DNA of 63,776 nt, filler included, from Craspedostauros australis (lineage: Eukaryota), in NCBI GenBank assembly GCA_030167865.1. It is 9 parts of 9 records of this genome, joined end to end, with 100 filler letters (N's around TTAATTAATTAA, not from the genome) between each part and the next. Parts side by side here need not be neighbours in the genome. Positions count along the whole stretch, not along the records: positions 27,646 to 34,811 come from JALAGF010004945.1; 8 more parts are not named here. The stretch is one strand, 5' to 3'. The notes below the pieces were generated by a model. That model worked only from the letters and a program-made list of their open reading frames with translations. It did no database searches and was not told the DNA's origin. Both the position numbers and the translations under genes were made by a program. Below are positions 5,384 to 61,798 of the stretch, piece after piece (positions within the stretch are counted from its first letter, which is position 1; every line of letters begins with the position of its first letter).

Positions 5384-6030
5384 TTACACACATGTGTTGC
5401 AAATGGATGAACAATCGCACTCATCAGTGGCTGGCTTTGCCTTTGGCATCGTTTTTTCCTGGATACAGGGCGATGGCAGTCTGGTGCCCATCCAACACAT
5501 GAACAAGAGCATCACTGCCGTTATCTGATCTCGGCACAACGCTGTCATACTATCATGTTTGCAGATGAGCACAATACTCCATTCGAATAGAACTGTAGTG
5601 CTGCAGAGCGTTCCACTCAATGATTGTAGAACATTATAGAGCAGAATGGATACGTTCAAGTTCGCACCGATGATCCATCTGGCCATTGGACACGTACCGC
5701 CACATTTCAACTACGTCGCCTCGACTCGTTCTCGACTCTGTCGTGCTATTGTCGGAGCGACGCGCTTCATCGTTCTGCGAACAGTCGAATTGAGATAAGA
5801 ATGCACCAGGGATGATGATGGTAGTGAATTGTTTTCTGGCTCCCGATTTTAGCATCGCATCAACAACCAACTCCTCTCCTCGCATGTGTGTGCGCGCACC
5901 ATTCCAACACCCATCTCTCTTCGCCTATTGGCTTTGATCTTGTGTAGTAACTGTTCTAATTCCTTTAACAAGGAATTGTCGGGCATCGCCCGACACTTGT
6001 TAAAACTATTTTTCACACGGGGAGGATCCC
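5384..6030 (-). mobile_element. Highly decayed CoDi-type copia reverse-transcriptase relic
   Basis: Fragments KELEQLLH, TTIIIPGAFL and LQSLSGTL occur in the same order as KELKQVH, TADVPGAFL and LTKALYGTL in the intact CoDi ORF at 29875. Confidence 0.45.
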
Positions 6031-6571
6031 TTGTGCTTGCACAATATCTCTCCAAGGATGGTCCTGGCATTTCACACACCGCCTTGACTGTCCACCACCC
6101 CCATCTAACTCCCCCCCCCACACACACACACACCATTCATCCACAACAAACTCCCGCTTCCTCACAAGCAGCCACCATCGCAGCTCATTGGGTGGCAACA
6201 CGCTTGATCTGGGGTCCCAATCATTCCTCTCGTGCTTTGCTTCTACCCGCGTCAGCTCAAGTAACTACGGTCGTCCGTACGTGCTCCACAATTCGAACGG
6301 TGATGGTACATCCGCGTGAGTACACGACAAGCAATCGACGGTTGTTGCGATACACGATCCTACATTCTGGAGTGTAGTATTACGAGCAACCACGCTCCGA
6401 TTGGTTTTCCTACGACTACTCTATTGTGGAACACGTGTACTTGGAAGAGGAGGATTGCATAATGTTGTTGTTGTGGTTGGCGTTGCTGTTGCTATTGGCA
6501 TTACGAAAGACCGTTCCGCTGTCTCACATGCAATCCATCCTCTCTATCCTTTCTCTCTCTCTCTTCTCGCT

Positions 6572-27545: not shown

Positions 27546-28527
27546 NNNNNNNNNNNNNNNNNNNNNNNNNNNNNNNNNNNNNNNNNNNNTTAATTAATTA
27601 ANNNNNNNNNNNNNNNNNNNNNNNNNNNNNNNNNNNNNNNNNNNNCGTCAGAAAAGCAAGACAGGCGCACGGAAAGGAACCCCTGAGACATGACCAATGA
27701 CGCCGTGCTGCATCGCGACGTTTTTTTTTATTTTATCGCCAAATAAATGAGTTACTCGAAGGAGTCAGAAAAAAAAACAACCCACTTTCGGGTTTCGGAC
27801 CGAAATGGGTGTTTTTTTTTTGCAACACGGGACATCGTGGAGGAATGTGGGACTTAAGTAGTACGTTGCCATTTTCGGCGACCTTCCGTTTGTCTCCACA
27901 GGCAAATGGGGGTCNNNNNNNCTGTGGAGGCAAATTGAGACTTCAATTTGCCTGTGGAGACAAGCTACGTAGAGTTTGTCTCCACAGACATGAAAACCCT
28001 CATTATGGATATCGATTGCGTACTTGTGAACACAAATAAAATGTCAAATAGAAAATCGATGTTTCGTGATTTTGTCATTGCATCGTTCTTTGCATGTTGC
28101 ACAGTGTTCTATTTCGTCTGTGAAACAGGAGGATGATTTGGACTTACGGAACAGAGAGTGATGTCACGATCAGAATTAACCTTCCGAATACTCGAACAAG
28201 TGAAAGCACACGAACCAACTCTTGCACAGTGTTTCAGTGACAGAAACGCGGAGGCATGGCGCCGGACAAGCAGTCTAAATGTGGAGATGCTGTCCTCTGT
28301 TTGTATGGTACGGTTTAATTGGTATCTACATACATTGGTACATCAACTATTGATGATACTGCGATGGGTACCAAAGGTCAACAAGGATGCGTCAGACCAG
28401 GGTGGGAGGCGACTGGGAAATTGGTCTCCCGCAGCTCCCAACGTCGGCCACCACGACACGGTGTCGAACCGATGATAAAATAGATAAGTGGAAATCATTT
28501 CACAACGGAGGAATAGAATAGTATATT

Positions 28528-28891
28528 TGTTACGACATAAGGTGCTGCGGAATCGAACCGCTCTGCCTACCAGGCCACCTTAGTCGAAACTGCTACTGTC
28601 TAGATACAAATACCTGTTCTGACACCCTTCCTATTGGTAACTAGACTAGCCCTTCAGCCCCTACCAGCCCTTCCGGCTACGTAGTCAGACCGCTCACACT
28701 CTATGTTTATCCTCCCGCTGTAGGGAGACGGCATTTCGTCCCAGTCGCCAACAAGGCATGATGTTTTCGAGGACTCGAACCCGCGACCTTACCATGTTAC
28801 GACATAAGGTGCTGCGGAATCGAACCGCTCTGCCTACCAGGCCACCTTAGTCGAAACTGCTACTGTCTAGATACAAATACCTGTTCTGACA
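28528..28891 (-). mobile_element. TRIM (miniature non-autonomous LTR retrotransposon), 364 bp
   Basis: Two identical 97-bp TG..CA direct repeats at 28528-28624 and 28795-28891. On the minus strand a TGG-starting PBS directly follows the 5' LTR, and the purine tract AATAGGAAGGG directly precedes the 3' LTR. Flanks are tATATT / cATATT. Confidence 0.92.
28805..28849 (-). ncRNA. Mini-tRNA-like structure inside the TRIM LTR (second copy at 28538-28582)
   Basis: Sequence TAAGGTG-GCCT-GGT-AGGC-AGA-GCGG-TTCGATT-CCGC-AG-CACCTTA forms a 7-bp closing stem, a small hairpin and a T-arm with a perfect B-box (GGTTCGATTCC). Confidence 0.7.
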
Positions 28892-29523
28892 CATATTATG
28901 ATCGTGCGAGTTGCTCCACAACATGACAGTCCGACCTGAAGTACTCCGCGAGTGCACACTCCATGTGCTTCGAGCAACGATGGATGGAGTATCATCGTCG
29001 CTGGTGTCATCACCAGCAATGCTATCGACATCATCGTTCTCCTCGTCAATGAATGATCGCGGACGACACGATGTTGGCGTCACAAGCTCAACGGCCAATA
29101 CGTGGAGACTCACCTTGAGAACAATCGATCGTGAAAAGGCCAGTCGGCACCTGTCACGTGATGTACGAGCATCGTGGACATTGACAACAACCCGCACTGC
29201 GCCACGCTACCGATGCTGCCACTACCAAACCAAGGCCAACGACCTGCAAAAAACGAAACAGCGCAAAGCATCATAGCACAACTCCGCTCATCTTCGTTGC
29301 AAGGTGAGGCGAGGCGAGATGTGACGAAACGAAACACGGCAGAACACGACGAAAACGAAACGAAACGAAACGAAACAGGTGTGACAACACAACACGATGC
29401 ATGATGAGACGGAACATGAGATCATGAGGGAAAGGCGTATTCTGGCAGCTCCATCCAACCATCTCTTCGAAGCTGTGTTCATAAAATGAATGAATCCTCT
29501 GCACAAATCAAACTTCTATCGCA

Positions 29524-32500
29524 TGTTGGTGCAGTAGACTCTGAGCGGAACAAAACCGCCGGAATGGAATCCGGACGGAGCAAGGACGCGAATGCCAACC
29601 ACCGATGCAAATCAACGGCTGGGAGCCATCATCAACATCATGCTGCGCAGCACAAGGCAAACAGCAAGAAGATGGCGAACAAGAACAACAAACAAGCAAA
29701 ACAGGCAAAGCAAACAAAAGCACACAAACTTGTGTAAACTATCTGATTACACCACCCACAACAATCTCACTTCTCTGCTTCTAGTCTATCGCTCCGGTTC
29801 ATTGCCGGGTTGGGACTGTGGCAAGAGTTGTTGTTTCAACATAGTTTACACAAGTTGCCCGCTCTATCACTGCGATGAGCAAAGAAACCAAGCCCAACCC
29901 GACAAAGCCCAAGGGCGGCGTTGGGAAGGCAAACAACCAACCCAGACGTTATCCGACGCCCCGCAAGTCCACGTTCACTGGCGCGTGCGAAGCACTCGAT
30001 GGACGTATCTTTGACTGTTCAGCATCCCGCACTAAGCAGGTGCTCCAGTACACAAAGACTCTTGACGCCATCGTGATCTACGCTGGAACAATGTACAGCC
30101 CGTACGTGCGAAAGGCCCTCGACAACATGGAGCCAACGACCTTCGATCCACCAGTTCGATACGCGAACGACGCGGACGACTACACCAAGGACCTCTGGAG
30201 GGCTCAATACAGGACGTACAGCGCACGAGTGGAGAACTACAACACCAAGATGATGGAGGTCTACGCCCTCATCCTCGGACAGTGTACCGACCTCATGCGC
30301 AGCCGTTTGACTGAGTCAACTGGCTTTGCCGCTGCCAAGTCGGCGCAAGACCCACTCAAGCTCCTTGAAGTCATCAAGAACGTGTCGTTCGATATCAACT
30401 CCAGTGAGAACATCGCCGTCACCATCTACAAGGCAATCAAGGCGTTCTACGCGATCCGCCAGACACCTCATCAGCCACTCCTTGAATACTACGAGACGTT
30501 CCTCTCACAGATCGAAGTCAACAAGAGCATTGATGCCAACCTTACTGGACATGATGGCCTCAACGACATGGCCGTGGAGCTGTCGGCACACGATGAACTG
30601 ACCGATGACAATCGGGCCAACATCCACGCGATCCGACGCGAGCGATTCCTTGCAGTCGCATTCTTGGAGGGCGCCGACCAGGGACGCTACGGCAAGCTCG
30701 TCGAAACCCTTCACAATGACTACCTCCTGGGCAGCAACAACTATCCAAGTGGCGTGACCGATGCATACAAAATGCTTGAGAACTTCCAGAACAACCCCAA
30801 GTACAACTCTGAACCTGGCGGTCCAAGCAACAAGGGCGCGGCCTTTGCCACCGTTAACGGCGCCAACAGCAAACCAGCAGGCACCGACGCCAGCACTCTC
30901 GTCACCGCAGGTGCGCCACACGGAGCCAACGATGAAGGAGATCACAACTACCACAACTACGCGCTCAACCAGTCGCCCAATCCCATCCCGGACACATGGT
31001 GGCTGCTCGACAACCAGTCAACGGTCGACATCTTCGCTGATGGTGGATATCTCTACGACATCCACGAGGTCGATGAATACCTCACTGTTCACTGCAACGC
31101 CGGGACAGCAACCACCAACCTGATGGGCACTCTCCCAGGGTACGGCGCAGTGTGGTATCATCCTGACGGAGTGGCCAACATACTCTCGCTCAGCAACATC
31201 AAGGATCGTTTCCGCATCACGTTCGACAGCGCTGGTGACAACCGGTTCATCATCCACAAGCCGGACGGCACCACCAAGGCCTTCGAAGAGTCCAGCTCTG
31301 GCCTCTACTACCATGACACGACAGTGTACCGCGGATCTGTCCTGGTGACTACTGTAGCGGGTAACAAGTCTAAGTTCTCGTCTATCGATTACTCACGTGC
31401 TCAGCTTGCCCGTTCTGTCCAGCAGCGCATTGGTCGTCCGTCCACTCGCAACTACATCAAGTATGTAAACAACAACATGATCCAGAACTGCCCCGTCACC
31501 AGTAAGGACATTCGCAATGCCGAGCTCATCTTCGGTCCTGATCTCGGATCACTCAAAGGCAAGACGGCTCGCACCACATCACCGCAAGTGCAAGCAGAAA
31601 TCACTGCTTTGCCCTTCTCCATCCTGCGTCAGTATCAGGAAGTCACACTCTCCGTGGACATCATGAAGGTGAACAAGATCCCATTCCTCGTCACCATTGC
31701 AAAGCACATCAAGCTTGGCACTGCTCACAAACTAGACTCCGAGTCTAGCACATCCATCACCAAGAGCATCATGATGATCGTGCGGGTCTACCAACAGCGT
31801 GGATTCAAGGTGGTCATGGTCCTCACCAACAACCAGTTCGAGCCCATCCGCGGCGCACTCGCAGCAGCAGGGACAGCGCTCAACGTCACAGCTCGTGACG
31901 AGCACGTCCCAGCAGTTGAGAGATACATTCGGACTATCAAAGAACGCACCCGCAGCATGTACAACGCGCTGCCATTCAAGCAGTACCCGCCAGGCCTCCT
32001 CATTGAGATGGTATACACCGCTGTGTACTGGCTGAACATGTTCCCGCATCACGACGGGATCTCCAAGCGAATGAGTCCGGCTGAGATTGTGGTTGGACGC
32101 AAGCTTGACTTCCACAAGCACTGCAAGGCGGAATTTGGAACGTACGTGCAGACGCACGAACAGCATGACAACAGCATGCATCCCAGAACCATCGCAGCAC
32201 TTGCACTGCGACCATCTGGAAACGACCAGGGAAGCTACCACTTCTACAGCCTTCTCACCGGAAGGATCCTGCACCGTAACAACTGGACGGAGTTGCCGAT
32301 GCCAGATGCTGTGATTAAACACGTTCACGATCTTGCCAAGCAGAAGAAAGGCCAGAATGACATCGTGTTCACAGATTCACACGACAACATCGTGATGTTG
32401 CCGACCATCGGTGCAACCAAGGACGATCCCAATGACGCAGATTACGATCCAGATGACGAATCTGAGGCCAGCGAAGAGTCGCTTGATGCTGACATCGAGT

Positions 32501-34811
32501 CAGATGAGGATTCCAATGACGATGACTCGGACGGCGATGATGCCGATGATGATGATCCAAACGATGCGGACTACGATCCCGCTGATGAGTCGGAGGCCAG
32601 CGACGATCCGCTGGAGCTCTATGTCGGCGCAGAGGGCGGCAACGATGATGATGATGAAGAGGAGGAGGAGGAGGAGGATGAGGAGGCGGATGACAGTGGC
32701 AGCGATGATGACAGCACCTTTGTCCCGAGTGACGCGGACGAGGACGATCACGACGATGATCACGATCCTGATGCTGCTGGACTTGAGCAAGAGGAAGCCG
32801 GCGCACTCTTGCCCGCCAAAGAGACAATGGACCAGCCAGCCATTGATCCGCTGATCGCACCCATCCATGACGTCGTGCACGAGTTCGTCAACGAAATGCA
32901 AGCTCGGCCAGGTGGTCCCAATGATCCAGGAGTGGACGGCGCTGCCGATGAACAGGAACCGGAGCAGGAAGGACGCCGCACTCGTGGAGGACCGCGACCT
33001 GACTATGCCAGGCTGCACAACGTGGGCACCACCGACACAGGAGCCCATGCAACGATGGTGCAGGTGTCAACCAATGCGGAGGACAAAGTCTGCGATGAGA
33101 AGGTGGGATACACTCTTCTCACCGAGCAGATGAATTGGAAGAGAGGCCTCAAGCTGTTCAACGAACGCGGAGAGGATGCAATCAGCAAGGAGCTGAAGCA
33201 AGTGCATGACATGGAAGGATTTGAGCCAAAGCATTGGCATCAGCTCTCCAAGGACGAGCGTCGCAAGTCGCTGCGATACCTCATGTATCTGAAGGAGAAG
33301 CGCACCGGTCTCATCAAGGGACGGGGGTGTGCGGACGGCCGACCACAGCGGCTGTACATGACCAAGGAGGAAACCAGCTCCCCCACCGTCTCCCTGCTCG
33401 GACTGATGCTCACATGCATTGTCGATGCACACGAAGGGAGAGACGTTGCCACCGCCGACGTCCCCGGAGCATTCCTTCAGACCACTTTTGACAAAGGCGA
33501 GATCGTGCATGTCCTCATTGAAGGACGCATGGCTGAGCTACTTGCCAAGATCGCTCCTGATGTGTACAAGAAATACGTCAACCAGAAGCGAGGACAATCG
33601 TCCATCTACGTGCAGCTGACGAAGGCGCTGTACGGAACCCTCAAGGCCGCACTTCAGTGGTGGAAGGATCTGACGACCACCCTCGTGGAAGATGGATTCA
33701 CCATCAACCCATACGATTGGTGCGTGGCCAACAAGGACGTCAACGGCAGCCAATGTACTGTCGTCTGGCATGTCGACGACCTGAAGATCTCTCACAAGGA
33801 CAGCTCGGTCGTCGACGATGTGCTCCAGATGCTCAGCGAGGCATATGGCAAGCACAGCCCGCTCGCTGTCACCAGAGGCAAGGTCCATGACTATCTTGGC
33901 ATGCAACTGGACTTCTCCAATCCCGATCAGGTGCAGATTGGCATGAGCGAGTACATCAATGGCATTCTCGAAGGAGTACCGGCAAACATGCATGGCAAAG
34001 CCACCACGCCAGCAGCTGAGCATCTGCTCGACATCAACGAGAACAACCCAGTCAAGCTGGATCAGGAGACAGCCGATCTGTTCCACCACACCGTGGCCAA
34101 GCTGCTGTTTCTGTGCAAGCGTGCACGACCAGACCTGCAGACCGCAGTCGCATTCCTGTGCACTCGTGTCAAGGCACCTGACGAGGATGACTACAAGAAG
34201 CTCACCCGCGTTATCAAGTATCTCCGTTCCACCAAGGATATGACTCTCACTCTTGGAGGGTCCTCGCTCGAGAATGTGCAGTGGTGGGTCGACGGATCCT
34301 TTGGCGTGCATGGCGACATGCGCAGCCACACTGGAGCACACATGTCCACCGGGGCCGGCACCATCTACGGCGTGTCGACCAAGCAGAAGCTGAACACCAA
34401 GAGCTCAACGGAAGCCGAGCTCGTTGCCGTGGACGACGTGATGCCGCAAGTGCTCTGGACTCGATACTTCCTCGAGGAGCAAGGCATCAAGGTGGAGCCA
34501 ACCACCATCCATCAGGACAATCAAAGCACCATGTTGCTTGAGAACAACGGCAGGGGCTCAAGCGGCAAGAAGACGCGTCATATCAGTATGCGCTATTTCT
34601 TCGTCAGCGACAGGATCAACAAAGGACAGATCTGTGTCAAATACTGCCCGACCGACGACATGATCGGCGATTTCTTCACCAAGCCAGTGCAGGGATCCAA
34701 GTTCCGCAAGTTCCGTGATCTCATCCTCAACCGCACAGAAGCCAATCCAACCAAGGCCAAGACCTACAAGCAGGCCCTCATTGGATCGAAGGAGTGTGTT
34801 GGTGCAGTAGA
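29524..34811 (+). mobile_element. CoDi-type Ty1/copia LTR retrotransposon, nearly complete (3' LTR cut by contig end)
   Basis: The 5' LTR is 29524-29841 (TGTTGGTGCAGTAGA…TTCAACA). The same start recurs at 34797-34811 after the purine-rich GAAGGAGTG. There is a single gag-pol ORF. Confidence 0.95.
29875..34811 (+). CDS. Copia Gag-Pol polyprotein (Gag, protease, integrase, RT, RNase H)
   Basis: Protease WLLDNQST; integrase VDIM…HVPAVER; RT DVPGAFL, KALYG, HVDD; RNase H VDGSF, SSTEAE, QDNQS, DFFTKP. Domain order is copia-type and the ORF reads into the 3' LTR. Confidence 0.95.
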
Positions 34812-36363
34812 NNNNNNNNNNNNNNNNNNNNNNNNNNNNNNNNNNNNNNNNNNNNTTAATTAATTAANNNNNNNNNNNNNNNNNNNNNNNNNNNNNNNNN
34901 NNNNNNNNNNNTCTCCATCTTCCGTGATTCCGGAGACCTTGACATCGCCCATGTCACCTTACGTCAAACGACCCCAATACCTGCCACTTTCACCCGCGGA
35001 ACGGTGGCAGATCCTGCAAAGGATCGGATCTCCTCCAAACCAAATCAAGAAAGCCATCACNNNNNNNNNNNNNNNNNNNNNNNNNNNNNNNNNNNNNNNN
35101 NNNNNNNNNNNNNNNNNNNNNNNNNNNNNNNNNNNNNNNNNNNNNNNNNNNNNNNNNNNNNNNNNNNNNNNNNNNNNNNNNNNNNNNNNNNNNNNNNNNN
35201 NNNNNNNNNNNNNNNNNNNNNNNNNNNNNNNNNNNNNNNNNNNNNNNNNNNNNNNNNNNNNNNNNNNNNNNNNNNNNNNNNNNNNNNNNNNNNNNNNNNN
35301 NNNCAACCAATCGCCATCGTATACGAACGTGATGAAGCGTCGTCTCGATTCCGACATCGCAAGGCACATCCAGTCCGTGCCATTTTAATAGCATGCCCAT
35401 GCTGTCCTTGCGCAAAGGGAGATCCACTCGGAATCACTCAAAGCAATACACTTGAGTGCAATTGCAAAATGGGATGGGATAGTGTGGTGTGGCAGTAACA
35501 GATAACATCACCTCTCTCTCTCTCTCTCTCTCTGGTGTTGCTTGACGGAGGTCGTCCGAGTACTCAATCTCTTGCGTCGACACCACGATCACAACAGTAA
35601 GAATCAACAACGAATGAGGACAGAATCAAGGTGTTTCGAAAAGTGCGGGACTTGTGCCATCTTGTGCGCACGCATTCTTTTCTCCTTCAACTTTATCACC
35701 GGAATCGTCGCGACCACCAATGACGTAGTTTTGTTCGGTGGAACTCTAATTGCTTGGTGAGCTGATTCGTCAGTTGAGTTCTCTGGACAGAATCTGTGAC
35801 TTTTCGCGTGTGCTTGTGGAGTCATCACACCGTTCGCGTTTGTCTGTCCCATAATTATCATTGTCACTCAGACAAGAAAAGGCATCGCAACAAGATAGCG
35901 AAGATGGAGGTGTCTTGCGCACAATTTGCCTGTCCGAACAACGCATCCGATCAACACCATGACGCATGTCACGAGTTGTGGTACCCACACGTTTTGTTCC
36001 TCCAACCTTCCCACAACCAGTCTGCCTCCAACACACACAGAGAGGGGACTGGAGCGTCTGATCATTCACAAGAGGGCGCGAGTGTCGGCACGGTATGGAA
36101 CTGCGTTTCTGGGAATGCCAAACGCATAGCCACTCCTCAGCCAGGTCATTCACCACGAAGAAAGCAACGACTGCTGTGGCGACATCATCATCCTCCTCCT
36201 CCAAAGAAGACAGTCAGAGCACCATCTCTCCAAGAGCGCGATTATTCGCACGAGTAGATAGTGATAGATAGAGACCCCCGCATCCTCGTACCTCCGTTCA
36301 TGCCTCCATTCGTACCTGCACTCACTGCCAACAAGTCAATCACAAACAAACGAACCCGATGCG

Positions 36364-36954: not shown

Positions 36955-37129
36955 AACCACACAATCAAGTGCTGGTCGAATAAAAAGAAGCACGCCCGAC
37001 GGACCCTGATAATATGCGCTTAGAGAGTGNNNNNNNNNNNNNNNNNNNNNNNNNNNNNNNNNNNNNNNNNNNNTTAATTAATTAANNNNNNNNNNNNNNN
37101 NNNNNNNNNNNNNNNNNNNNNNNNNNNNN

Positions 37130-41169: not shown

Positions 41170-41375
41170 TATCAGCACAAAATCGAATAGTGCTAAGTAC
41201 GTTACTCCTGTAGCCCCCACTATCTATAAATTTCACTTGTGTTCGGTTCAGCAATCGCATCGCCTGTAGCTCAACGGTAGAGCACCAGTAATTCTAACTG
41301 AGGTTCCAGGTTCGAATCCCGGCATGGTACTTTGCTTTTGCTCGCCCCTTGTGATTTTTCAATAGTGCTCTAATA
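41170..41375 (+). mobile_element. 206-bp solo-LTR-like insertion carrying a tRNA-like sequence, 5-bp TSD GTACC
   Basis: GTACC occurs at 41165-41169 and 41376-41380. Termini TATCAG…CTAATA form an imperfect inverted pair. Removal restores the LINE peptide GHGYHGHRL. Confidence 0.85.
41260..41330 (+). tRNA. tRNA-like/pseudo-tRNA (nominal anticodon TTC, but non-canonical loop and mismatched acceptor stem)
   Basis: D-arm TA-GCTC-AACGGTA-GAGC, anticodon arm CAGT/ACTG with a 7-nt loop, T-arm CCAGG-TTCGAAT-CCCGG. T-runs lie downstream and TATAAAT lies about 35 nt upstream. Confidence 0.65.
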
Positions 41376-42935
41376 GTACCCGTGGCCCAGAGCTAACTCC
41401 GTCAGCGCTCTGTCGCCTTGCCTCTGTGGTATCATCGCCAGGGTGTTTTCCTGGATGTGGAACCTGGCCTCCTGTATGTCGCCCCACAGGTTGGAGATCC
41501 AACAGGGAGTGAGAGCATCTCGGAGGAGATGATGGGGGTGGTCAAAAAGGGAGCCTGACACACCCACTTCGTCTTTGAGGGCCTCTATCGAGTGCTCGAT
41601 CATCTTCCCTGTCGGGGTTGCCGCATGGACCTCCAGGAACATGGCCTGCACCTGTCGTACAACTTGGCGCCTCCAGGGATTCGGAATCCCAAGGCCTCCT
41701 TCGGCGACTGGTGCATAGAGAACTGTGCGGGGAAAAGTGCGCATCAGCTTCATCTTGGGGAGCGCGGCTTGCAAAGCTGGGGCTGTGATATAGTTCCATT
41801 GGTTGGGTGTTAGTTGCACCGCAGGCATCATGTACTCAATGGACTTCATAAACTGTAGTACCAGAGCAGTTTTGGCCTTGCTGGGGGACACTTGGGCCAC
41901 CCTCAGCTTTTCAGCAAACAGCTCTGCCTTCCAGTGAAGGGTGCTGACTTGGACATCGTTGCGACCGTCGAGAGAGATAGCCACGCCCAGCGTTTCGACT
42001 GGGTCGGTGTGACGCTTCCTTGAAATAGTGGCTCTGTCTTTGCCACTGCCTTGAATGTCCACGATGCCGTCTACGTGTGAGTCCTCTGCCCACCATTGGC
42101 CTGACTCGAAGGAGAAGTGAACTGCCCACCACGCAGATTTGGCGGGCACGATGGCGCCGCCCGTGGCTGCGAGTAAGCCGCTCCATTCCTCGATCATGGC
42201 TTGGAACTTCTGGAATCCCTCTTCCGGAGATTCTCTGGCCTTGGAGACACGGACGAGGTCTGTGTCGTCGACGAATGCGGACCCCAATACTCTCATCGGG
42301 GAGAGGCTGAGAGGCGCTCGAAGCACCGACTCATGCCCCTGAGCTTGCATTGCCTTGAACATTACGGAGCTAAAGGCTGCGGTCATACTCAGAGTAGCAT
42401 TCGCTACATGGGGACCAAAACCTGCACGCCGAACTCTAGTCAACATACAACATCGCATCCAGCTCCAATAACAGCATGAACTGACATGGTATTACACATG
42501 CAACGCATGCTACACACCAACCCAATAGTACACATATCTTGTGATATACTCTACTCCTGACTTTCTGCACTACCATTTGCTCTTCAGCTGTATGATCGAC
42601 CACTGGCAACAATGCACTCAACGGCCGGACAGTCGCAGACGTGCATCTTTGCAGTGTGCAAACGTGCATTGACGCCACAAATTGAAATTTTGTGGGTGAG
42701 CAGAGGTGCGCGACGTTGCGCACACAATTCGCAACGCGCTTCCAACAAGTCTGCGCAACTGCAAGGCACGGGAATTCCGTTGAAACTGACACTCGATCGC
42801 ACTTGACCAAGACGACCACTCCACAAACACAATCACGATTCGACTACAGCGACTAATATGCTCGACCAGTAGAAGAAAATATAACGTCTATAACCGTTAT
42901 TGTTTTAAAATCCGAACACCAGGCTAATCGCAAAT

Positions 42936-43146
42936 AAACGTTGAAACTAATGACGAAACGTTGAAACTAATGACGAAACGTTGAAACTAATGACGAAACG
43001 TTGAAACTAATGACGAAACGTTGAAACTAATGAAGAACCGTTGAAACTAATGAAGAAACGTTGAAACTAATGAAGAAACGTTGAAACTATCGGCGAGGTG
43101 TTGAAACTATCGGCGAGGTGTTGAAACTAATAGAGAGCCGTTGAAA
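42936..43146. repeat. 20-bp tandem array (AAACGTTGAAACTAATGACG and variants), about 11 units
   Basis: GTTGAAA recurs exactly every 20 nt from 42940 to 43140. Confidence 0.95.
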
Positions 43147-43173
43147 GCAGTCACGATTCATTCGTGAAGCCTT

Positions 43174-45266
43174 GTGACACTCCAGATGAAAAATGACGCA
43201 CGTAATTTGATCGAGGCGATGTCATCACACAACAGGGCAACGGCGGAAAAGCCTCCATTTCTGTTCGTGTTTTGTTGGCGCTCTTGCCATCCACTATCCA
43301 TTATCCATCAGTCATCATACAATCGAACAAGACAGGAAGCCCAACAAGCTGGGCAACGAGCACCTAAAGAAGGCATTGAGGCGGAGGCAGCGAGGGAAGC
43401 CTTGTCGCAACCATCGCGAGCAGCAGAGGATGGCAGCGAGGGAGGAACCACCACAACAACCATGAGGAGAAGGGGACGGCAGCGAGGCGGAGGCAGCGCG
43501 AGCAGCAGCACTGCAAGAATCGCCAGCAGCAGGGGGCAGCAGCGAGGAGGAGACAGCGAGAGCACCACCACCGCAACCGTTGCAAGCAGCAGAGGAAGGC
43601 AACGAGGCAGAGGCAGCACGAGCAGCAGCACCACAAGCATTGCAAGCAGCAGGGGACCGCGGCGAGGCGGAGGCAGCGAGAGCACCACCACCGCAAGTAT
43701 CGCAAGCAGCAAGAGCAGCAACACCGCAACAATCGCAAGCAGCAGGGGACAGCGGCGAGCCGGAGGCAGCAAGAGCACCACCACCGCGACCATTGCAAGC
43801 AGCAGAGGGCTGCAGCAAGGCGGAGGCGGCGAGAGCACCACCACTGCGAGCATTGCAAGCAGCAGACAGCTGCCGCGAGGCAGAGGCAGCGAGAGCACCA
43901 CCACCGCAAGTATTGCAAGCAGCGAGAGCAGCAACACCGCAACAATTGCAAGCAGCAGGGGACCGCGGCGAGCCGGAGGCGGCAAGAGCACCACCACCGC
44001 GACCATCGCAAGCAGCAGAGGACCGCGGCAAGGCGGAGGCGGTGAGAGCAGCAGCACCGCAAGCAGCAGACGGCTGCAGCGAGGCAGAGGCAGCGAGAGG
44101 ACCACCACCGCAAGTATCGCAAGCAGCGAGAGCACCACCACTGCGACCATCGCAAGCAGCAGACAGCTGCCGCGAGGCAGAGGCAGCGAGAACACGACCA
44201 CTGCAACCACCGCAAGCACCAGAGAAAGGCAGCACGATGGAGGCAGCGAGGGCAGCAGCACGGCAACCCAGAAATCAACCGAAACTGATTTCTTGGGGCA
44301 CCATGAAGTGCTCACACTTGGCCTCAAGTATGCCGGTTTCCGTCAGGAAAAGATGGCAGATCGCACGATGCAGACTCGCTTTGCTGCAACGTACGGACTG
44401 TGCCCTGAAAGCTTTGCTTCCCTCTTCGTGGATCTCTTCAACAGCCAAACGGCACAATTCAAACGTCCGCGTCCGCGCGATCTCTTTGTTGTCTTGAACT
44501 GGCTGAAAACATACTGCACAGAGCATGTGATGGCTGGCCGATGGAATTTGGATGAGAAGACTATCCGTGGTCTCATCTGGTCGTACTTGCCAGCTATTCA
44601 AGCCCTGCTGCCACAAAAGGCAAGTGTGACAAAGGGAATCTTGTGCTGGAATGCTTCTTTCATTTCCTTCTCTCGAACGAACTCTCTCACATGTTTCTCT
44701 TCTTTCTTTTCATTCTGGTACACCATCAATAGGTCATCTGGCCGCCAAACACAACAGAACTTGCAGGAGACGATAAACACTTCATCATCACTGTTGATGG
44801 TGTTCACATCAGGATCCAAGAACCACGGATGGACCCAGGAACCAAGTGGTACTCTCACAAGTCTCACTCAGCTGGTTTGACGTATGAGCTCGGGATATCC
44901 CTGGCAGAGAGCAAGCTGGTGTGGATCAATGGGCCATTTCCAGCTTCCACTTCAGATCTGGTGATGTATCGCAAGCCAGATGGTCTCAAATCCAAGATCC
45001 CACCGAATGCCCTGGTAATTGCTGATGGGGGGTACAACAATGAGCCTACAATCAGTGCCCCAAATCCGTGTGATTCTGCTGCTGTGAGGAAGTTCAAGAA
45101 TCGAGCAAGAGCACGGCATGAGAGCTTTAACGGAAGAATCAAGAACTTCCAAGCACTTGCGAATGGGTACCGCAATCAACTGAGCAAGCATCAGTGCCTA
45201 TTTGAGGCCTGCTGTGTTTTGATTCAGTACGAACTCGACCATGGCCATCCAATATTTGACATCTAA
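43174..45266 (+). CDS. ISL2EU/PIF-Harbinger-type DDE transposase with low-complexity repetitive N-terminus; GC-AG intron 44620-44732; start uncertain
   Basis: HTH-like region WLKTY.TE…AGRW. After splicing: ITVDGVH…EP, WYSHK, YELGI, WINGP, ADGGY and RARHESFNGRIKNF (D-D-E). Confidence 0.88.
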
Positions 45267-48414: not shown

Positions 48415-50511
48415 GGCCATTGCGCTCACGATCACTACCACACCCGGAGAAAATTAACAATAGTAGGAACTCAACACTCTGCATGTAATTAACTATCAAT
48501 CATCTTCAATGTATTTGGTTTCAGATATGATTGCTGGTTCTTGTTGTGTGTGTGCTGTGGTGTCCGTCTCTGTGCAGATCTGGGCGCGCGATGCACCACA
48601 CTCACTTGGCAAACCGATAGCACGAGTTGTACAGTTTTTAGATCTCCAGCGTGGGATTAGTCGTGTTGCGTAGCCCAGTCTGGAGCAAAATTGCAATCCA
48701 TCCCAAAAACGCTTATGATGCTATATCGCAACACCACATCATCTACAATTAAAACTAAGTGTACCATGTGAACAACTCGTTGGTTGCGAATAAGAATATT
48801 GGACTTAAATTGAAATTGACTTCAAATTTAACATCATTTTGTTGCCAACGTGCGATTGTGTGTGGCGCAAAATTCTGGATGGGACCATGCTGCCGTTGCT
48901 TTGCCATCCAAGACGATGCCCATGAATGTCTCATTTCGTTCACTTGCACACCTCATTGTCTCCATATACCCCATTTGTATCCATCCCTGGCAAGCATGCA
49001 CCAGTGTATCTCCCTTCAATCCGCATTGTCAGCTCACTGCTGAAAACCAACACCTTGACAATGAGGGTCGATCTTCACACAGCCGCTTCATCCGACCATA
49101 CCTCCTGTTCACAACCATCTATGTTCCTCCTCCCCCAAGCATCATACCTCGATCCCTGATTCATTGAGGGCATGTTGATGCATCCTCCAATGCCTCAGGA
49201 TGTATCTCTGCATTTCAATTCATCCCGATGCTGGTACCATGGCCAGCTTTCTTTGTCTCGGAAATGCGACTGCCACATTTTCTTGATTTCCACCTCTCCC
49301 ACTCAATCGAACCAATCCCCACTTCTCCACCCCATTCCCGACTTGATGATGAAGACATCTTATATGGGTCGTTTGGCAATGTGATGGATGTTCACATGNN
49401 NNNNNNNNNNNNNNNNNNNNNNNNNNNNNNNNNNNNNNNNNNTTAATTAATTAANNNNNNNNNNNNNNNNNNNNNNNNNNNNNNNNNNNNNNNNNNNNAA
49501 GAAGCACATCACTCCAATGCAGCGAGGAGATGGACATGATTCGCGAGGAACTCCGGCTTGCCAAACTCAAGCGCAACTACCACGATCTGCGCCTTCAGGA
49601 ACTCAATCTGAAGCTTCAGGTTGCTGAGGCGAAGAAAGAAATGGAGGAAGCGCATCACAATCGCTCGGAATGAAGGCATTGGGTGTCCAACTTTCACATG
49701 CGTGGATGGATGGAGAGGTGGAGCAATGGGGAAATCGGAGAAGGGGTGTGTATGCAGGATCCGATCGGTGGTGCCACTTTCAGGTGGGGTGGACATTCTG
49801 AAGAATATTTGAAGAATGTAATACAATAGAACAGATCACAGTTTGCACGGGCATGCGACCTTCTCTCTCCCATTAAGACTTCTGGATATGATCGTGCACT
49901 AGCTTACGAATGGTGTTTCGTGAATGCTTGTCGAGTTTGCGATAGTCGGAGCAGGTAGATACCACCCTCTCCACAAACGCAGATCGCAGAATACACGTAC
50001 ACGCCATAGGATGGTGCGAGTGAATGGCGCAATTCAAACGACGAACAAAGAAACAGAAACCTTGACCACTCTCAACGCAGTTTTGGTCCGTTGAGTCGAA
50101 CCTCCTTTTCCGTCCACGCAATGCGCGTGTACGCACGAAGGAGGCAAGTTCGCGAAATTGATCTGCATCAAATCATCAGAAACCAATGCGGATTCAAATC
50201 TCCATCAATGAGAAGTGCCATGCACATCGGCACCAAGTCACTTCAAGACCGCTGCTCGATGTCCATCGTCAATCATAACGGACACAGCAACAGCAGCAGA
50301 AGAAGCAACAGAGAGGCATCACACACCAATCGCCGCGTTGATCTTCCAACTTCACCTGCCCAGAAGACCGACGTTCAAACTTGTTTTCTTCTGTTTCGTC
50401 TTCATCGCTCGCAACTGCATCCACGAAACAAGAGCCAGTGCCATCGTCGAACATAGAACAACGTATGCCATCAAAGAAGACACTCAAACAGTACAAATCC
50501 ACTCCTTCACG

Positions 50512-54407: not shown

Positions 54408-54507
54408 NNNNNNNNNNNNNNNNNNNNNNNNNNNNNNNNNNNNNNNNNNNNTTAATTAATTAANNNNNNNNNNNNNNNNNNNNNNNNNNNNNNNNNNNNN
54501 NNNNNNN

Positions 54508-56911: not shown

Positions 56912-57409
56912 ACTGTCAAGTAGGTAACCCATTGGTCGTACCAAGCTCACACACTACTCACACATGACTCACACATGACTCACACATGGCTCACAAATGG
57001 CTCACACACAGCTCACATACAGCTCACACATAATGGTTCACGCTGTGGATAATCCAAAATGCAAGGCACAGCCATTTCCATCACCCACCACATAATTCAC
57101 ACTGAGATGTGTGCAGTCACAGCCCATGCACACACTCCAACCACCTTGCACACTGACAACATGGTTGACAATGGTCGACACACAGTTCTGCAAGCTATAT
57201 ACGACTCACTCTAACCCTATGCATTGTACAGGAATGGCCATCACTCAACCCACAACAACAACTGGCCAATCTCGACCCCCAGCACATGCACACACTCCAA
57301 ACACTGCACACACTGTCCAAATGGTTGACACATGGTTGGAACATAGCTCACTCATGATGTTGCAAGCCAAACACAACTCATACACCCATAATGCAATAAA
57401 CATCAATTG

Positions 57410-60360
57410 CCATCATTAACGGCACAACACACATTGGCCGATATCTATTCTTATACCCCACCCCCAACCACGCAACTAACTCCTAAAAGTATTGCCCAAC
57501 CAAACCCTTGATACCAATTCATCGCACATTAACCCTTGATACAAATTCATCAGCCATTCACCCTTGCCACAAGTTCAACATGCTGGAACCCTTACCATCA
57601 CTCACGGCACAACACACATTGGCTGATATCCATTCCTATACCCCACCCCCAACCACGCAACTAACTGCTGCAAGTATTGCCCAAACTAACCCTTGATACC
57701 AATTCATCGCACATTAACCCTTGATACCAATTCATCGCACATTAACCCTTGATACAAATTCATCACCCATTAACCCTTGCTACAAGTTCATAAAGCCCCA
57801 ACCCTTTTCATCACTCACGGCACAACACACATTGGCTGATATCTATTCCTATACCCCACCCCCAACCACGCATACCCTAGCTAACTCCTAAAAGTATTGC
57901 CCAACCTAACCCTAAACCGATACCAATTCATCACACATTAACACTCTAACAAATTCATCACATACTAACCCTTGATACAAATTCATAACACCCTGACCCT
58001 TGCCATCACTCACAGCACAACACACATTGGCTGATATCCATTCCTATACCCCACCCCCAACCACGCAACTAACTCCTAAAAGTATTGCCCAAACTAACCC
58101 TTGATACCAATTCATCATCGATTAACACCCTAGCCCTTGATACAAATTCATCACACAGCAACACCCTAGCCCTTGATACAAATCCAACACACATTAACAC
58201 CCTAGCCCTTGATACAAATTAGTCACACAGCAACACCCTAGCCCTTGATACAAATTCATAACACCCTGACCCTTACCATCACTCACAGCACAACAAAAAC
58301 TAGCTGATATCCATTCCTATACCCCACCCCCAACCATGCATACCCTAGCTAACTCCTAAAAGTATTGCCCAACCTAACCCTTGATACAAATTCATCACAC
58401 ATACACACACATACACGTGCTCACACACACACACTCACACTCACTCACACACCCAAAATGGAATGCACAGCAACTGCCATCACTCACTGCACAGCACCCA
58501 CTTGCAGTCACTTCCAGCTTCTCTCTCAACACCTCTGATTGCAGTAGTCACACATCCAACAACGCCAGGAGGCGCCCCACACCACATATGACATGGCAGA
58601 AGCATGGCGCATGTGGTTGGCAACTCCATGATGCTCGTTGCCACACTCAAAGATGGATCATGATGGATGATGGATGATGGATGATGGATGATGGATCACA
58701 ATATCTCACACATGCAGACACTTCCGGCCCCTCTCACAACACCATCAGCTGTGATACTTGCACATCTCACAACGCCCACACACGCCCCATGGAACGTACA
58801 ATGCACAATACACCACATCCATATCACATCTGGTCAGAAACGACATGATGCTCGTTGTCACTGTAACAGTAACACTCAAAGATGAACCAAGATGGCTCAC
58901 AAAATCACATGCTTGCAGATACAATACTAACCCTAACCCTAACGGCTAACCCTAACTCTCACAACACGATCAACTGCACTAATCGCACATCCAACATCAC
59001 TCGCACATGTTTGATGGCACGCATGACATGGTACATCCGTATCACATGCGGTCGGCAACTCAAAGATACTTGTTGTTGCCTTCACACTCACATGTGGATC
59101 ATGGTGGAGCACAATTTCACACACATGCTGTCATTTCCAGTCCCTCTGCAAACACCATCTAATGCAGTGCATCACATATTCAACATTGTATGCACACGCT
59201 CCATAGCTATAGCACGTACAGCGTACAGCGTACAACGTACAATACACCACCTCCATGTCACACGTGGCTGGCAACTCCACAATGTTCGGTGTCACAGTCA
59301 CACTCAAAAGATGGACCATGATGGATCACACAATCTTGAATTATGCAGATGCTTCTGGCCACTCTCACAACACCATCAACTGCGATACTCGCGCACCCCA
59401 CAACGCTCACACACGCACCATGGCACATACAATACACCATACACAATACATCACATCCGTATCATATGTGGCTGGCAACTCCAGGATCTTCAGTTTTGCA
59501 CACAAACCTGGACCATGATGCATGATGGATCAGAATAATATCTCACACTTGCACACATTTCCAGCTAACCCTAACTCTCTCACCACCACCAATTGCGGTA
59601 ATGGCACAACCAACAACGCTCACACATGCCCCAAAACACTCATGACACGATACAAGCGTAGCACATGCGGCCAGCAACTCCAAGATGCTCATTGTTACTG
59701 TCACAGTAACACTCAAAGATGGACCATGGTGGATCATGTTGGATCACAATAATATCTCACAATTGCAGTCACTTCCAGCCCATGTCTCAACACCATCAAC
59801 AGCAATATACTTTACACATCCAACAATGGCCGCACTCGCCCATACCATGCATGACATCGACCAAGTGTATCACATGCGGCCAGCCACCCCAACGTGCTCA
59901 TTGTCACACTCAAAGATGGATCATGATGGATCGTGTTGGATCACAATAATATCTCACAATTGCAGTCACTTCTGGCCCATATCTCAACACCTCCAACTGC
60001 AGTAATCACACATCCAACAACGCTCATACACACTCCAAAGCTACCTTGACATGGACCAAGTGTATCACATGCGGTCAGATACTCCATGATGCTAGTTGTC
60101 ACACTCCAAAGTGGACCGTGATGGAGCAAAATAATATCTCACACTTGCACACATTTCCAGATACTCTCTCACCACTGCCAATTGCGGTAATCACACATCC
60201 AACAACGTTCATACACGTCGCGTAGCATGCATGACATGATACACGCGTGGCACATGCAGCCGGCAACTTCATGATTTTCATTATCAGACTCAAAGATGGA
60301 CCATAATGCATAATGGATCACAATGTTTCACACTTGCAGTCACTTGCAGCTCCTCACTCA
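57410..60360. repeat. Complex degenerate satellite (about 190-300-bp units), CpG-poor, with CCCTAA-like motifs
   Basis: TATACCCCACCCCCAACCA recurs five times in 57450-58340. CAAAGATGGA.CATG…GGATCACAATA recurs in 58590-60330. CTAACCCTAAC occurs near 57905, 58930-58955 and 59565. Confidence 0.85.
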
Positions 60361-61009
60361 CTGGCCAACACGCACACACAGACGGTGCACACAGTGCACA
60401 CACACTGATCACGCAGTTCCCTACAAGCTTGAATGGCCAAATCACAACACGCTGCCCTACAGTGCCCATACACTGCCCATACACTGCTCACAACAAGGAA
60501 ATGCACGAAAACCCAAGATACAGCATCACTAATAACCCCTAACCCTCCATACACGAGTAGCAAAGACACACAAGACACAAAAGACACACAAGGCACACAA
60601 GGCATGCACAGAGACAAGGCCATGGCACAACATGTCACCAACTGCTCACTACACACCCATGTATGATAACCCAAAGTACAATAAAACCAGGGCAATTTCC
60701 AGCACCCATCATACACTAAGACACTGCTCACTACAGGCCAAAGCACGATAATCCAGGACACAAAAGCATCACCCTAACAATTGACAGCACCAATCATACA
60801 TCAAGACGCAGCTCACTACACCACAATGCACAACAACCCAAAAAGAATGTTGCTCATAGCCCCCAACACACTGGCAGCAAAAACACGCACACACAAGCGC
60901 CCGAACAATGCCCACAAAGCCAAAACTTGATCACACAACATGCCAATGCACGATAACCCACAATACAAGGACGATACTACACCCTAAGACACACATGAGC
61001 AGCAATGGC

Positions 61010-61262
61010 ACGCACTCACCCTTGCACTCACCCTCGCACTCGCACTCACCCTCACCCTTGCACTCACCCTCACCCTCACACTCACACTCACCCTCACCCT
61101 CACCCTCACCCTCGCACTCACACCCACACCCACACTCACACTCACACTCACACCCACACCCACACCCACACTCACACTCACACTCACACCCACACCCACA
61201 CCCACACTCACACTCACACTCACACTCACACCCACACTCACACTCACACTCACACTCACACT
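61010..61262. repeat. Hexamer microsatellite (CACACT/CACCCT/CACACC)n
   Basis: Directly visible. Confidence 0.95.
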
Positions 61263-61798
61263 GACACAGCAAACAACGCACAACGACTGTACACACACTA
61301 CACAACACAGACTACACACTCACATTCACAACGCACAACAAACGACGTACAGACCAATGACTGTACACACACTACACAACACCCAAACGGACAAAGGGCA
61401 GACCAATTATCCACACTACAATACACTACGGACAACGCACGGACGCTAATGTACCACCCAATTCACCATTTCCCGCAACTCCCAAATGTACCACCCAATG
61501 CCCATTTCCCACACCTCCCAAAATACCCCTAATCAACCCAAAATAGTGACAAACTTCAACACCCCACAGCTCGCTCAATATCCACCCATTGACAAAAGCG
61601 AGCGTCACTACAGGTGCCCAAGAGCCCGCTCCAAACCACCAACCACCAAAAAGCCAAAAATAAAAACGAATTATTGTTCAGGTTCCGGCTTTTATAAANN
61701 NNNNNNNNNNNNNNNNNNNNNNNNNNNNNNNNNNNNNNNNNNTTAATTAATTAANNNNNNNNNNNNNNNNNNNNNNNNNNNNNNNNNNNNNNNNNNNN

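Follow-up and report, generated by a model that had tools for sequence, protein, structure and literature searches.

A covarying LTR–PBS helix suggests that a diatom Ty1/copia retrotransposon probably primes its own reverse transcription in the manner of Tf1

Among self-primed retrotransposons are Tf1 and Tf2 of Schizosaccharomyces pombe, whose primer binding site (PBS) pairs with a part of their own LTR that is taken as the 5' end of the transcript (PMC7175516, PMC4600332); comparable sequence evidence led to the inference that Tj1 self-primes (PMC4600332). In copia elements (Pseudoviridae), the partner of the PBS is described as a host tRNA, most often initiator tRNA-Met (ICTV profile, PMC8515867). 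Self-priming is nonetheless not new to copia: it has already been predicted for the plant Ty1/copia TAR lineage, including Houba and Osr-1, which has no tRNA-type PBS (Neumann et al. 2019, PMC6317226), and the original prediction for the locus described here, which took self-priming to be characterized for the Tf1/sushi group of Ty3/gypsy, was incomplete in leaving these plant elements aside. Fungal GalEa elements likewise have no tRNA PBS and carry a 'Conserved Hairpin Site' at the PBS position, for which, on the account given in PMC5445492, the authors never found a complementary LTR sequence; the same study places CoDi-like elements with Ty and GalEa in copia 'branch 1' (Donnart et al., PMC5445492). 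LTR retrotransposons dominate the mobile elements of diatoms and respond to stress (Maumus 2009, PMC2806351), and the copia-like CoDi elements among them have short LTRs, the 163-bp LTR of Blackbeard driving transcription (PMC2806351). The original prediction advised checking the CoDi literature for an earlier mention; in the open-access main texts searched, we found no statement on how copia elements of diatoms are primed, and the main text of PMC2806351 mentions neither primer binding nor tRNA, self-priming, priming or PPT.

The element studied here lies in a 63,776-nt stretch of joined contigs from Craspedostauros australis (assembly GCA_030167865.1), hereafter the window, and its features are collected in Table 1. 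Its LTR opens with TGTTGG, and the contig runs into an N/linker block at the start of the 3' LTR, leaving the element cut at its 3' side. Because the 3' copy is cut, a repeat search by itself missed the LTR, and the position of the 5' LTR end rests on the terminal inverted repeat and on relatives. L055, L012 and L060 retain both LTR copies, and in these three relatives the complementary stretch comes immediately after the repeat, which ends in ..AACA. The junction between polypurine tract and 3' LTR (..AGGAGTG/TGTTG) is also conserved among relatives. A purine-tract rule for locating LTR starts in them proved too strict. No A-tails marking the end of R were present on the contigs searched; for strand transfer, R would have to reach past the arm.

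Table 1. Features of the Craspedostauros australis element, in window positions (a slash marks the predicted start)
Feature	Positions	Strand	Basis
5' LTR, 318 bp, terminal inverted repeat TGTTG...CAACA	29524..29841	+	first 15 nt recur at 34797-34811, after the purine tract; end motif ..TTCAACA common to relatives with LTR ends set by both LTR copies
Putative U3 (promoter part of LTR)	29524..29726	+	length variation in relatives
Putative initiator region CACA/AA, predicted start ~29727	29723..29728	+	motif placement in relatives
LTR arm and candidate self-primer, taken as the opening 15-16 nt of the transcript	29727..29742	+	perfect complement of 29841-29856; homologous arms covary with PBS in 25 relatives
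R/U5 enclosed by helix, predicted internal hairpins, single-stranded TTCAAC at end	29743..29840	+	folding
Primer binding site	29842..29856	+	adjoins LTR end; LTR base 29841 also paired
One gag-pol ORF of 1645 codons that stays open up to the contig end	29875..34811	+	ORF reading; relatives by protein search
Integrase-like region, residues 480-840	31312..32394	+	AlphaFold model and Foldseek
Copia-type reverse transcriptase (RVT_2), residues 1125-1368	33247..33978	+	Pfam PF07727, E 8.2e-14
Polypurine tract region GAAGGAGTG abutting 3' LTR	34788..34796	+	junction conserved in relatives
3' LTR, first 15 nt only	34797..34811	+	cut by contig end

The element is a Ty1/copia retrotransposon, as had been proposed, with an RVT_2 reverse transcriptase and a region of integrase fold upstream of it. 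Pfam recognized no integrase, protease or RNase H in the window protein, and a profile search of PDB sequences returned only weak zinc-knuckle and capsid matches; the integrase was accordingly assigned by fold, the AlphaFold core having a pLDDT above 80 and Foldseek matching the region to retroviral integrases (best E-value 1.8e-8). Tf1/sushi elements are Ty3/gypsy chromoviruses with the order PR-RT-RH-IN and a gypsy-type RT; as the integrase fold here precedes an RVT_2 RT, membership in that group is excluded. Of 7997 candidates scored against the gag-pol ORF, 1365 are relatives at E<=0.001. The named relatives, the nearest ones included, come from diatoms, the one exception being a MAG labelled Marinobacter sp., and the nearest Atlas clusters are assigned to Bacillariophyta; at the level of the host, this supports a possible CoDi placement of the element.

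Read directly from the sequence, positions 29727-29741 (AACTTGTGTAAACTA) are the exact reverse complement of 29842-29856 (TAGTTTACACAAGTT), as originally claimed, and one further pair, between T29742 and the last LTR base A29841, brings the helix to 16 bp, limited on the outside by A29726/G29857 and on the inside by C29743/C29840. The polarity also agrees with that proposed for minus-strand priming: the 3' end of the LTR segment (29741) lies opposite the first base past the LTR, and being paired at the LTR/PBS boundary it would, if extended, copy U5. The PBS of the window copy does not begin with TGG, as had been pointed out; it matches the element's own LTR, as in Tf1-type elements; the usual partner in Pseudoviridae is a host tRNA.

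Short inverted repeats are common, and a chance repeat inside an LTR could in principle mimic such an arrangement. Nothing else speaks for it, and we regard it as hardly conceivable here. The 15-mer is present twice in the window, once per strand, where 0.03 occurrences would be expected even with two mismatches allowed, and none of 100 shuffles had two or more. Among 20,000 shuffles of the 318-nt LTR, a complement anchored at the boundary reached at least 10 nt eight times and at most 12 nt, once, against the 15 nt observed. Chance is refuted further by the recurrence of the helix, with differing and covarying sequences, in 25 related elements from public contigs, in each of which a 14-18 bp helix joins a stretch inside the LTR to the bases immediately following its end (..CAACA).

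These relatives were gathered in several ways. A scan for perfect inverted repeats of at least 13 bp with loops of 30-180 nt, run over 320,815 nt made up of 79 related loci and the contig of the element, yielded 22 stems, 20 of which share one layout (YCA/arm ... AAC/A-arm, the latter directly past the LTR end); when the complete scanned set was shuffled five times, one stem came out in all. Six further elements fit the layout, namely L055 (with two G.U pairs), L069 (an imperfect helix), L012, L023 and L025 (in which one arm lies at each end of the contig) and L082, which comes from a second collection, of genome contigs, where one of four loci was testable. A collection of viral contigs contained no relative. 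Counted by locus, the helix is present in 22 of 25 with a gag N-terminal match and absent from L013, L061 and L076, the last of which was examined by the mismatch-tolerant scan only. L061 begins within gag, and in L013 no LTR was seen upstream. An earlier pass, anchored on a guessed gag ATG, had recovered the helix from the window copy and from no more than 12 of 23 loci, the misses being mostly due to wrong ATG calls or to arms split across contig ends. Wherever both LTR copies fix the LTR ends, the arm lies exactly at the boundary. Across the elements, the distance back to its partner within the LTR is 41-105 nt. This last feature sets the diatom elements apart from GalEa, which is of the same broad copia branch and also lacks a tRNA PBS, its hairpin being local and palindromic (PMC5445492). 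The Tf1/Tf2 elements resemble them in pairing the PBS with their own LTR; they have a structured U5 between the arms, such as folding predicts for the diatom elements, and the Tf1 duplex is 11 bp, as compared to 14-18 bp here (PMC7175516, PMC4600332). In 18 of the 23 diatom elements the final base of the LTR is paired as well.

The original prediction had proposed looking for PBS–LTR complementarity and compensatory changes in sister families, and the outcome is strongly positive. In a 17-sequence MAFFT alignment covering 15 helix pairs, 92.5% of cells were paired and 14 of the 15 pairs had changed on both sides, the covariation score being 0.872 as compared to 0.213 in shuffles (0/500 reached it) and 0.177 or less in slid registers; RNAalifold on its own predicts the same helix. 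Counted over 14 pairs in 23 elements, the 322 cells comprise 317 Watson-Crick pairs, four G.U pairs and one mismatch. Divergence of the arms equals or exceeds that of the neighbouring U5, and the primer sites of all 23 compared elements (the 22 tabulated right arms and L082) differ. Close pairs of elements behave in the same way: L015 and L030, with loops 85% identical, differ at two pairs, both changed on both sides, and in L060 and L068 both changed pairs are compensated (2/2). Complementarity between the post-LTR sequence and the same LTR is thus maintained by compensatory change across families, which supports the self-priming interpretation of this copia element.

Long-range stems around the PBS are known from retroviruses, and such U5-leader/PBS stems offer a precedent for a different role, in which the helix would be a structural clamp closing U5 and the true primer a host RNA (a tRNA, a tRNA half or another small RNA) that displaces the LTR arm. 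That copia elements are normally tRNA-primed (PMC8515867) also speaks for this possibility; however, we consider it improbable. The annealing site would be the right arm, and a site for a host RNA would stay constant within a host, yet there are 23 sequences in 23 elements, the window copy has no TGG start, and a purely structural stem would tolerate G.U pairs, which fill only 4 of the 322 cells. The sequence covered for comparison with tRNAs was the window and 14 long related loci; ARAGORN identified none there, and Rfam gave only a borderline tRNA at 41265-41324 of the window and nothing in 27646-29900; between the PBS and this single tRNA-like call there was no match or complement of 6 nt or more.

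The R/U5 of the window copy folds with z-scores of -4.76 and -5.77, the terminal helix is kept in both MFE and centroid structures of all 15 folded elements, and each of the 15 folds has predicted internal hairpins between the arms (z -2.4 to -6.3), the loop alignment being too poor for covariation. A helix of this kind might serve gene expression, either by masking, within the 5' copy of R, a poly(A)-type signal rich in A/T or by controlling gag translation. The PBS is present at the 5' end only, as masking would require, the LTR arms are A/T-rich, several having TGTAA or TTTAAA-like strings, and the gag ATG lies 1-58 nt past the right arm in most elements (18 nt in the window copy). We nevertheless judge such a role, taken as the whole explanation, very unlikely: it leaves unexplained why the partner always starts at the exact LTR boundary and why the pairing is nearly pure Watson-Crick, and closeness to the start codon is not conserved, L023 having its PBS-position arm at 106-120 and its gag ATG at 826. 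A role in expression could also be added to priming instead of replacing it.

Tf1-like self-priming across the diatom copia clade appears to be the best reading of these data, and for the window element we think it probable that the 5' end primes reverse transcription as in Tf1. In this reading the transcript would start with the first base of the LTR arm, the likely site, at about 29727 in the window copy. TCAH+1W is an initiator-like motif of diatoms, and CACA has been quoted at a Phaeodactylum (P. tricornutum) TSS (PMC4686930); with +1 on the first arm base, TCAH+1W is found in 16 of 22 elements, against a background of 0.0072 per nt. In the relatives the length upstream of the arm varies (about 50-265 nt) and that from the arm to the LTR end is kept at about 60-120 nt, and this combination of a variable U3-like length with a kept arm-to-LTR-end length would be expected of a TSS at the arm. 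Self-priming might also operate by another route than in cis from a capped 5' end, the arm being supplied in trans by a second packaged genome, or the transcript starting upstream of 29727 and giving a 5'-tailed primer. Cis and trans are indistinguishable from sequence alone, six of the 22 elements have no exact TCAH+1W placement, and the window copy has CACA, not TCA, before the arm, an initiator match weaker than in most relatives; we still find these variants unlikely, given the initiator-like motif exactly at the arm edge in the 16 elements and the contrast between the varying and the kept lengths.

For priming in cis we envisage the following course. Pol II would initiate at the initiator-like site within the LTR, and the first 15-16 nt of the RNA would loop back across some 100 nt of R/U5, predicted to be structured, to pair with the 15 nt past the LTR, a pairing that is visible in the sequence and covaries in relatives. 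By analogy with Tf1, the RNase H of the element would cleave at the 3' edge of the duplex, and RT would extend the freed 3' end through U5 to produce minus-strand strong-stop DNA. Plus-strand strong-stop synthesis would then copy the primer back into the PBS, so that any change in the LTR arm would be written into the progeny PBS; that the arms stay perfectly Watson-Crick while family sequences drift would follow from this recopying.

More tentatively, and with confidence a little short of even, we speculate that this diatom-associated copia clade gave up tRNA priming altogether, adding one more independent origin of self-priming to those of Tf1/sushi and plant TAR, its primer being set by the LTR initiator and its arm and PBS behaving as a freely drifting, family-private 'barcode', because the PBS would be recopied from the primer in every cycle. 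Like the diatom element, TAR is a copia lineage with no tRNA-type PBS and with predicted self-priming; it differs in its land-plant hosts and in that its prediction comes from an annotation survey, and we compared it with the diatom clade by description only (PMC6317226). If CoDi-like elements do belong to 'branch 1' (PMC5445492), the TAR and diatom origins would be separate. If the clade does prime itself, its replication would be independent of host tRNA supply, its primer site would be a family-specific marker that is missed by annotation tools seeking tRNA-type sites, and self-priming would have arisen repeatedly in unrelated LTR lineages; on the more speculative view the clade could also be invisible to defence aimed at tRNA-type primer sites. 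For the diatom clade, unlike Tf1, self-priming is predicted from sequence.

The window copy itself may be non-autonomous, as a Gag CCHC knuckle is absent from it and residue 652 of the integrase-like region, a near-invariant Asp (36 of 37 aligned proteins), is Asn.

The 15 nt that follow the 5' LTR had been noted to be a perfect reverse complement of an internal LTR segment; this complementarity proved exact and extends by one further pair, T29742 with A29841, to give a helix of 16 bp. The LTR terminus CAACA at 29841 is the inverted complement of the first five bases of the LTR, and because the contig stops at 34811 the window copy retains very little of its 3' LTR. The 15-mer has two occurrences in the window, one on each strand (0.03 expected even with two mismatches tolerated), and none of 100 shuffles had two matches to it. 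The complement anchored at the LTR boundary is 15 nt long; the longest in 20,000 LTR shuffles was 12 nt (one case). In the RNA fold of 29727-29856 the 16-bp helix closes a structured loop (z = -5.77, or -4.76 with the gag start added). Upstream of the LTR lies a perfect direct repeat that contains a tRNA T-arm-like string on its minus strand; ARAGORN and Rfam made no call at this repeat. As the window consists of contigs chained by linkers, sequences on either side of a linker block have no genomic linkage.

Positions of the element, its proposed priming helix and other features in the window
Feature	Position	Remarks
U2 snRNA gene	5911-6100	114.6 bits
Linker blocks	13163-13262, 18038-18137, 27546-27645, 34812-34911, 37030-37129, 49399-49498, 54408-54507, 61699-61798	N44-TTAATTAATTAA-N44
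Contig carrying the element	27646-34811	
Inverted repeat, perfect, 18 bp	27890-27907 / 27946-27963	flanks a 7-N gap
Direct repeat, 98 nt	28528-28625 / 28795-28892	267 nt apart, ~630 nt upstream of LTR
5' LTR start	29524	TGTTGG; first 15 nt found again at 34797-34811, after GAAGGAGTG
Left arm	29727-29741	AACTTGTGTAAACTA
Right arm (PBS)	29842-29856	exact reverse complement of left arm
Single ORF	29875 to contig end	1645 codons, open
Gag C-terminal region	30850-30975	
Residue 652	31828-31830	
Acidic stretch	32400-33000	residues ~850-1040
Borderline tRNA call	41265-41324	29.9 bits (cut-off 29)
Tandem/simple repeats	42893-43172, 43368-44270, 57407-60311, 60977-61306	
RT-like fragment	61803-61973	minus strand; 33% identical to polyprotein residues 1246-1302

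The assignment of the element to Ty1/copia was upheld by its protein. The sole Pfam match was RVT_2, the copia-type RT, at residues 1125-1368 (E 8.2e-14), and ahead of it a structure model of residues 480-840, built with eight homologues (mean pLDDT 64.7, core >80), had a beta-beta-beta-alpha-beta-alpha-beta-alpha core for which Foldseek identified retroviral integrases (E 1.8e-8 against RSV integrase; TM up to 0.77 against HIV-1 catalytic cores). Integrase ahead of RT is the Ty1/copia order, and membership of the Tf1/sushi (gypsy) group is therefore excluded. A protein search identified 1365 relatives at E<=0.001 out of 7997 scored candidates; among the 120 matches listed, best-segment identity was 34–63% and the named sources were Fistulifera solaris, Fragilaria crotonensis and one MAG labelled Marinobacter sp. 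The closest Atlas clusters were eukaryotic RVT_2 clusters, with Bacillariophyta the most frequent phylum. A long Asp/Glu-rich low-complexity stretch, variable in length among relatives, separates the integrase-like region from the RT, and a short RT-like fragment elsewhere in the window is probably what is left of a different copia element.

When metagenome contigs were scanned with an alignment of 37 proteins, 79 related loci were recovered; a second scan, of genome_contigs, yielded four. Together with the element's contig, the 79 loci (320,815 nt in total) were searched for perfect stems of >=13 bp with loops of 30–180 nt, using no position prior, and 22 stems were identified, against one in five whole-set shuffles. 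One layout was common to 20 of the 22, with YCA before the left arm and the right arm starting either on the A of a conserved ..(T)TCAACA or directly behind it; the other two were a 13-bp stem in locus L013 and the 18-bp inverted repeat, the sole long stem of the element's contig other than the primer helix. Further loci also carried the helix: L055 (15 bp, two of them G.U), L069 (a mismatch and a single G.U pair), and L012, L023 and L025, whose contigs start in U5 with the PBS at the head and its complement in the LTR copy at the tail. Among the genome_contigs loci, L082 had a perfect 15-bp helix, and the junction was absent in the other three. The complementarity thus recurs in sister families, in 25 loci besides the window copy, and it is present in 22 of 25 loci that have a gag N-terminal match; the exceptions are L061, whose contig starts within gag, L013, in which no upstream LTR was seen, and L076, in which the mismatch-tolerant scan, the sole scan covering it, identified no helix. 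Three of the genome_contigs loci (L080, L082, with its full primer helix, and L083) lie in MAGs labelled bacteria or cyanobacteria, a sign that the bins contain eukaryotic contamination.

Compensatory change across families was likewise confirmed. In a MAFFT alignment of 17 R-U5-PBS regions, limited to loci with contiguous arms and similar loop lengths, the 15 helix pairs were 92.5% paired and 14 of them had changed on both sides; the covariation score of 0.872, lowered by the retained but visibly misaligned L017 and L039 rows, compares with 0.213 for shuffles (reached by 0/500) and no more than 0.177 when the register was slid by 1–3 columns. RNAalifold, unaided, returned the same helix of 14 pairs, all with compensatory change. 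A direct count over 23 elements and 14 pairs gave 317 Watson-Crick pairs, four G.U and one mismatch; the two G.U pairs of L055, whose LTRs are 92.9% identical to each other, look like post-insertion decay. Close relatives behave alike: L015 and L030 (loops 85% identical) differ at two pairs with both partners replaced in each, L060 and L068 are compensated at both differing pairs, and L011 and L082 (loops 71% identical) differ at 7/15 pairs, on both sides. As the arms differ at 7/15 pairs in L011/L082 and L011/L018 while the enclosed U5 is ~70% identical, primer and PBS evolve at least as fast as their surroundings with pairing still perfect. No two right arms were identical among the 23 elements, and a host RNA is difficult to square with this variety, since 23 different sequences occupy the one site to which a primer has to anneal. 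In self-priming, plus-strand strong-stop DNA copies the primer, such that the arm would rewrite the progeny PBS in every cycle; the near-absence of G.U and the fast joint drift of the arms fit a PBS rewritten in this way.

The position of the helix is equally constrained. Both LTR copies are present in L055, L012 and L060 (with a one-base ambiguity at the LTR end of L060); the repeat ends ..AACA in each copy, the complementary stretch follows the 5' copy only, and the 3' LTR start is likewise conserved (..AGGAGTG|TGTTG). Helices are 14–18 bp long with loops of 39–105 nt, and the last LTR base is inside the helix in 18/23 elements. The terminal helix was kept in all 15 folds of clade elements, and the predicted loop has three parts: a short hairpin on the 5' side, a long imperfect one, and an unpaired TTCAAC ahead of the PBS. 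If the stem were there purely for structure or regulation, both this exact boundary position and the Watson-Crick purity would go unexplained, though such a function may exist in addition. Kadono et al. (PMC4686930) have proposed TCAH+1W as an initiator-like consensus for diatoms, and in 16 of 22 elements its +1 is the base that opens the left arm (background 0.0072 per nt in the loci); L031 is one base off, and the window copy has CACA|AA in its place, CACA being quoted as -2 to +2 of a mapped P. tricornutum start (PMC4686930). This motif, the variable LTR portion upstream of the arm (~50 to ~265 nt) and the constant downstream part point to a U3|R boundary at the arm's 5' edge.

We therefore propose self-priming in this diatom copia clade, a reading well supported by the sequence comparisons and in keeping with a known mechanism. 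The geometry is that of Tf1-type self-priming: the 5' arm of the transcript would fold back onto the PBS, the duplex would be cut at its 3' edge, and the freed end would be extended through U5. If priming occurred in trans, or transcription began ahead of the arm, the mechanism would be a variant of this one. For Tj1, an active element, this mechanism was assigned from the same kind of evidence (PMC4600332). Pseudovirids are described as tRNA-primed in the ICTV profile (PMC8515867); however, the plant copia TAR lineage was predicted by Neumann et al. to self-prime, with Houba and Osr-1 cited there as subjects of earlier proposals (PMC6317226), and self-priming is therefore not a new idea for copia. 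Fungal GalEa copia elements are reported to have no PBS and a local hairpin without an LTR partner (PMC5445492), whereas in the diatom elements the right arm pairs with the LTR arm. The main text of Maumus et al. 2009 makes no mention of primer sites, and in the open-access main texts searched we identified no paper tying self-priming to diatom elements.

The ORF of the window copy is otherwise open, but the CCHC knuckle that 36 aligned relatives have in Gag is absent, and residue 652 is Asn where 36/37 aligned proteins have Asp. In the model, this column falls where the fourth strand of the integrase-like core ends, between those of D595 (invariant) and E690 (E in 31/37, D in 5/37); on the model, the three columns would form the DDE triad, with 652 the putative second residue. 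The window copy may rely on other copies for movement and is possibly non-autonomous. Other contigs of the window carry a U2 snRNA gene, a borderline tRNA call, and tandem-repeat arrays with periods of ~20, 60 and 185 nt together with CA-rich simple repeats.
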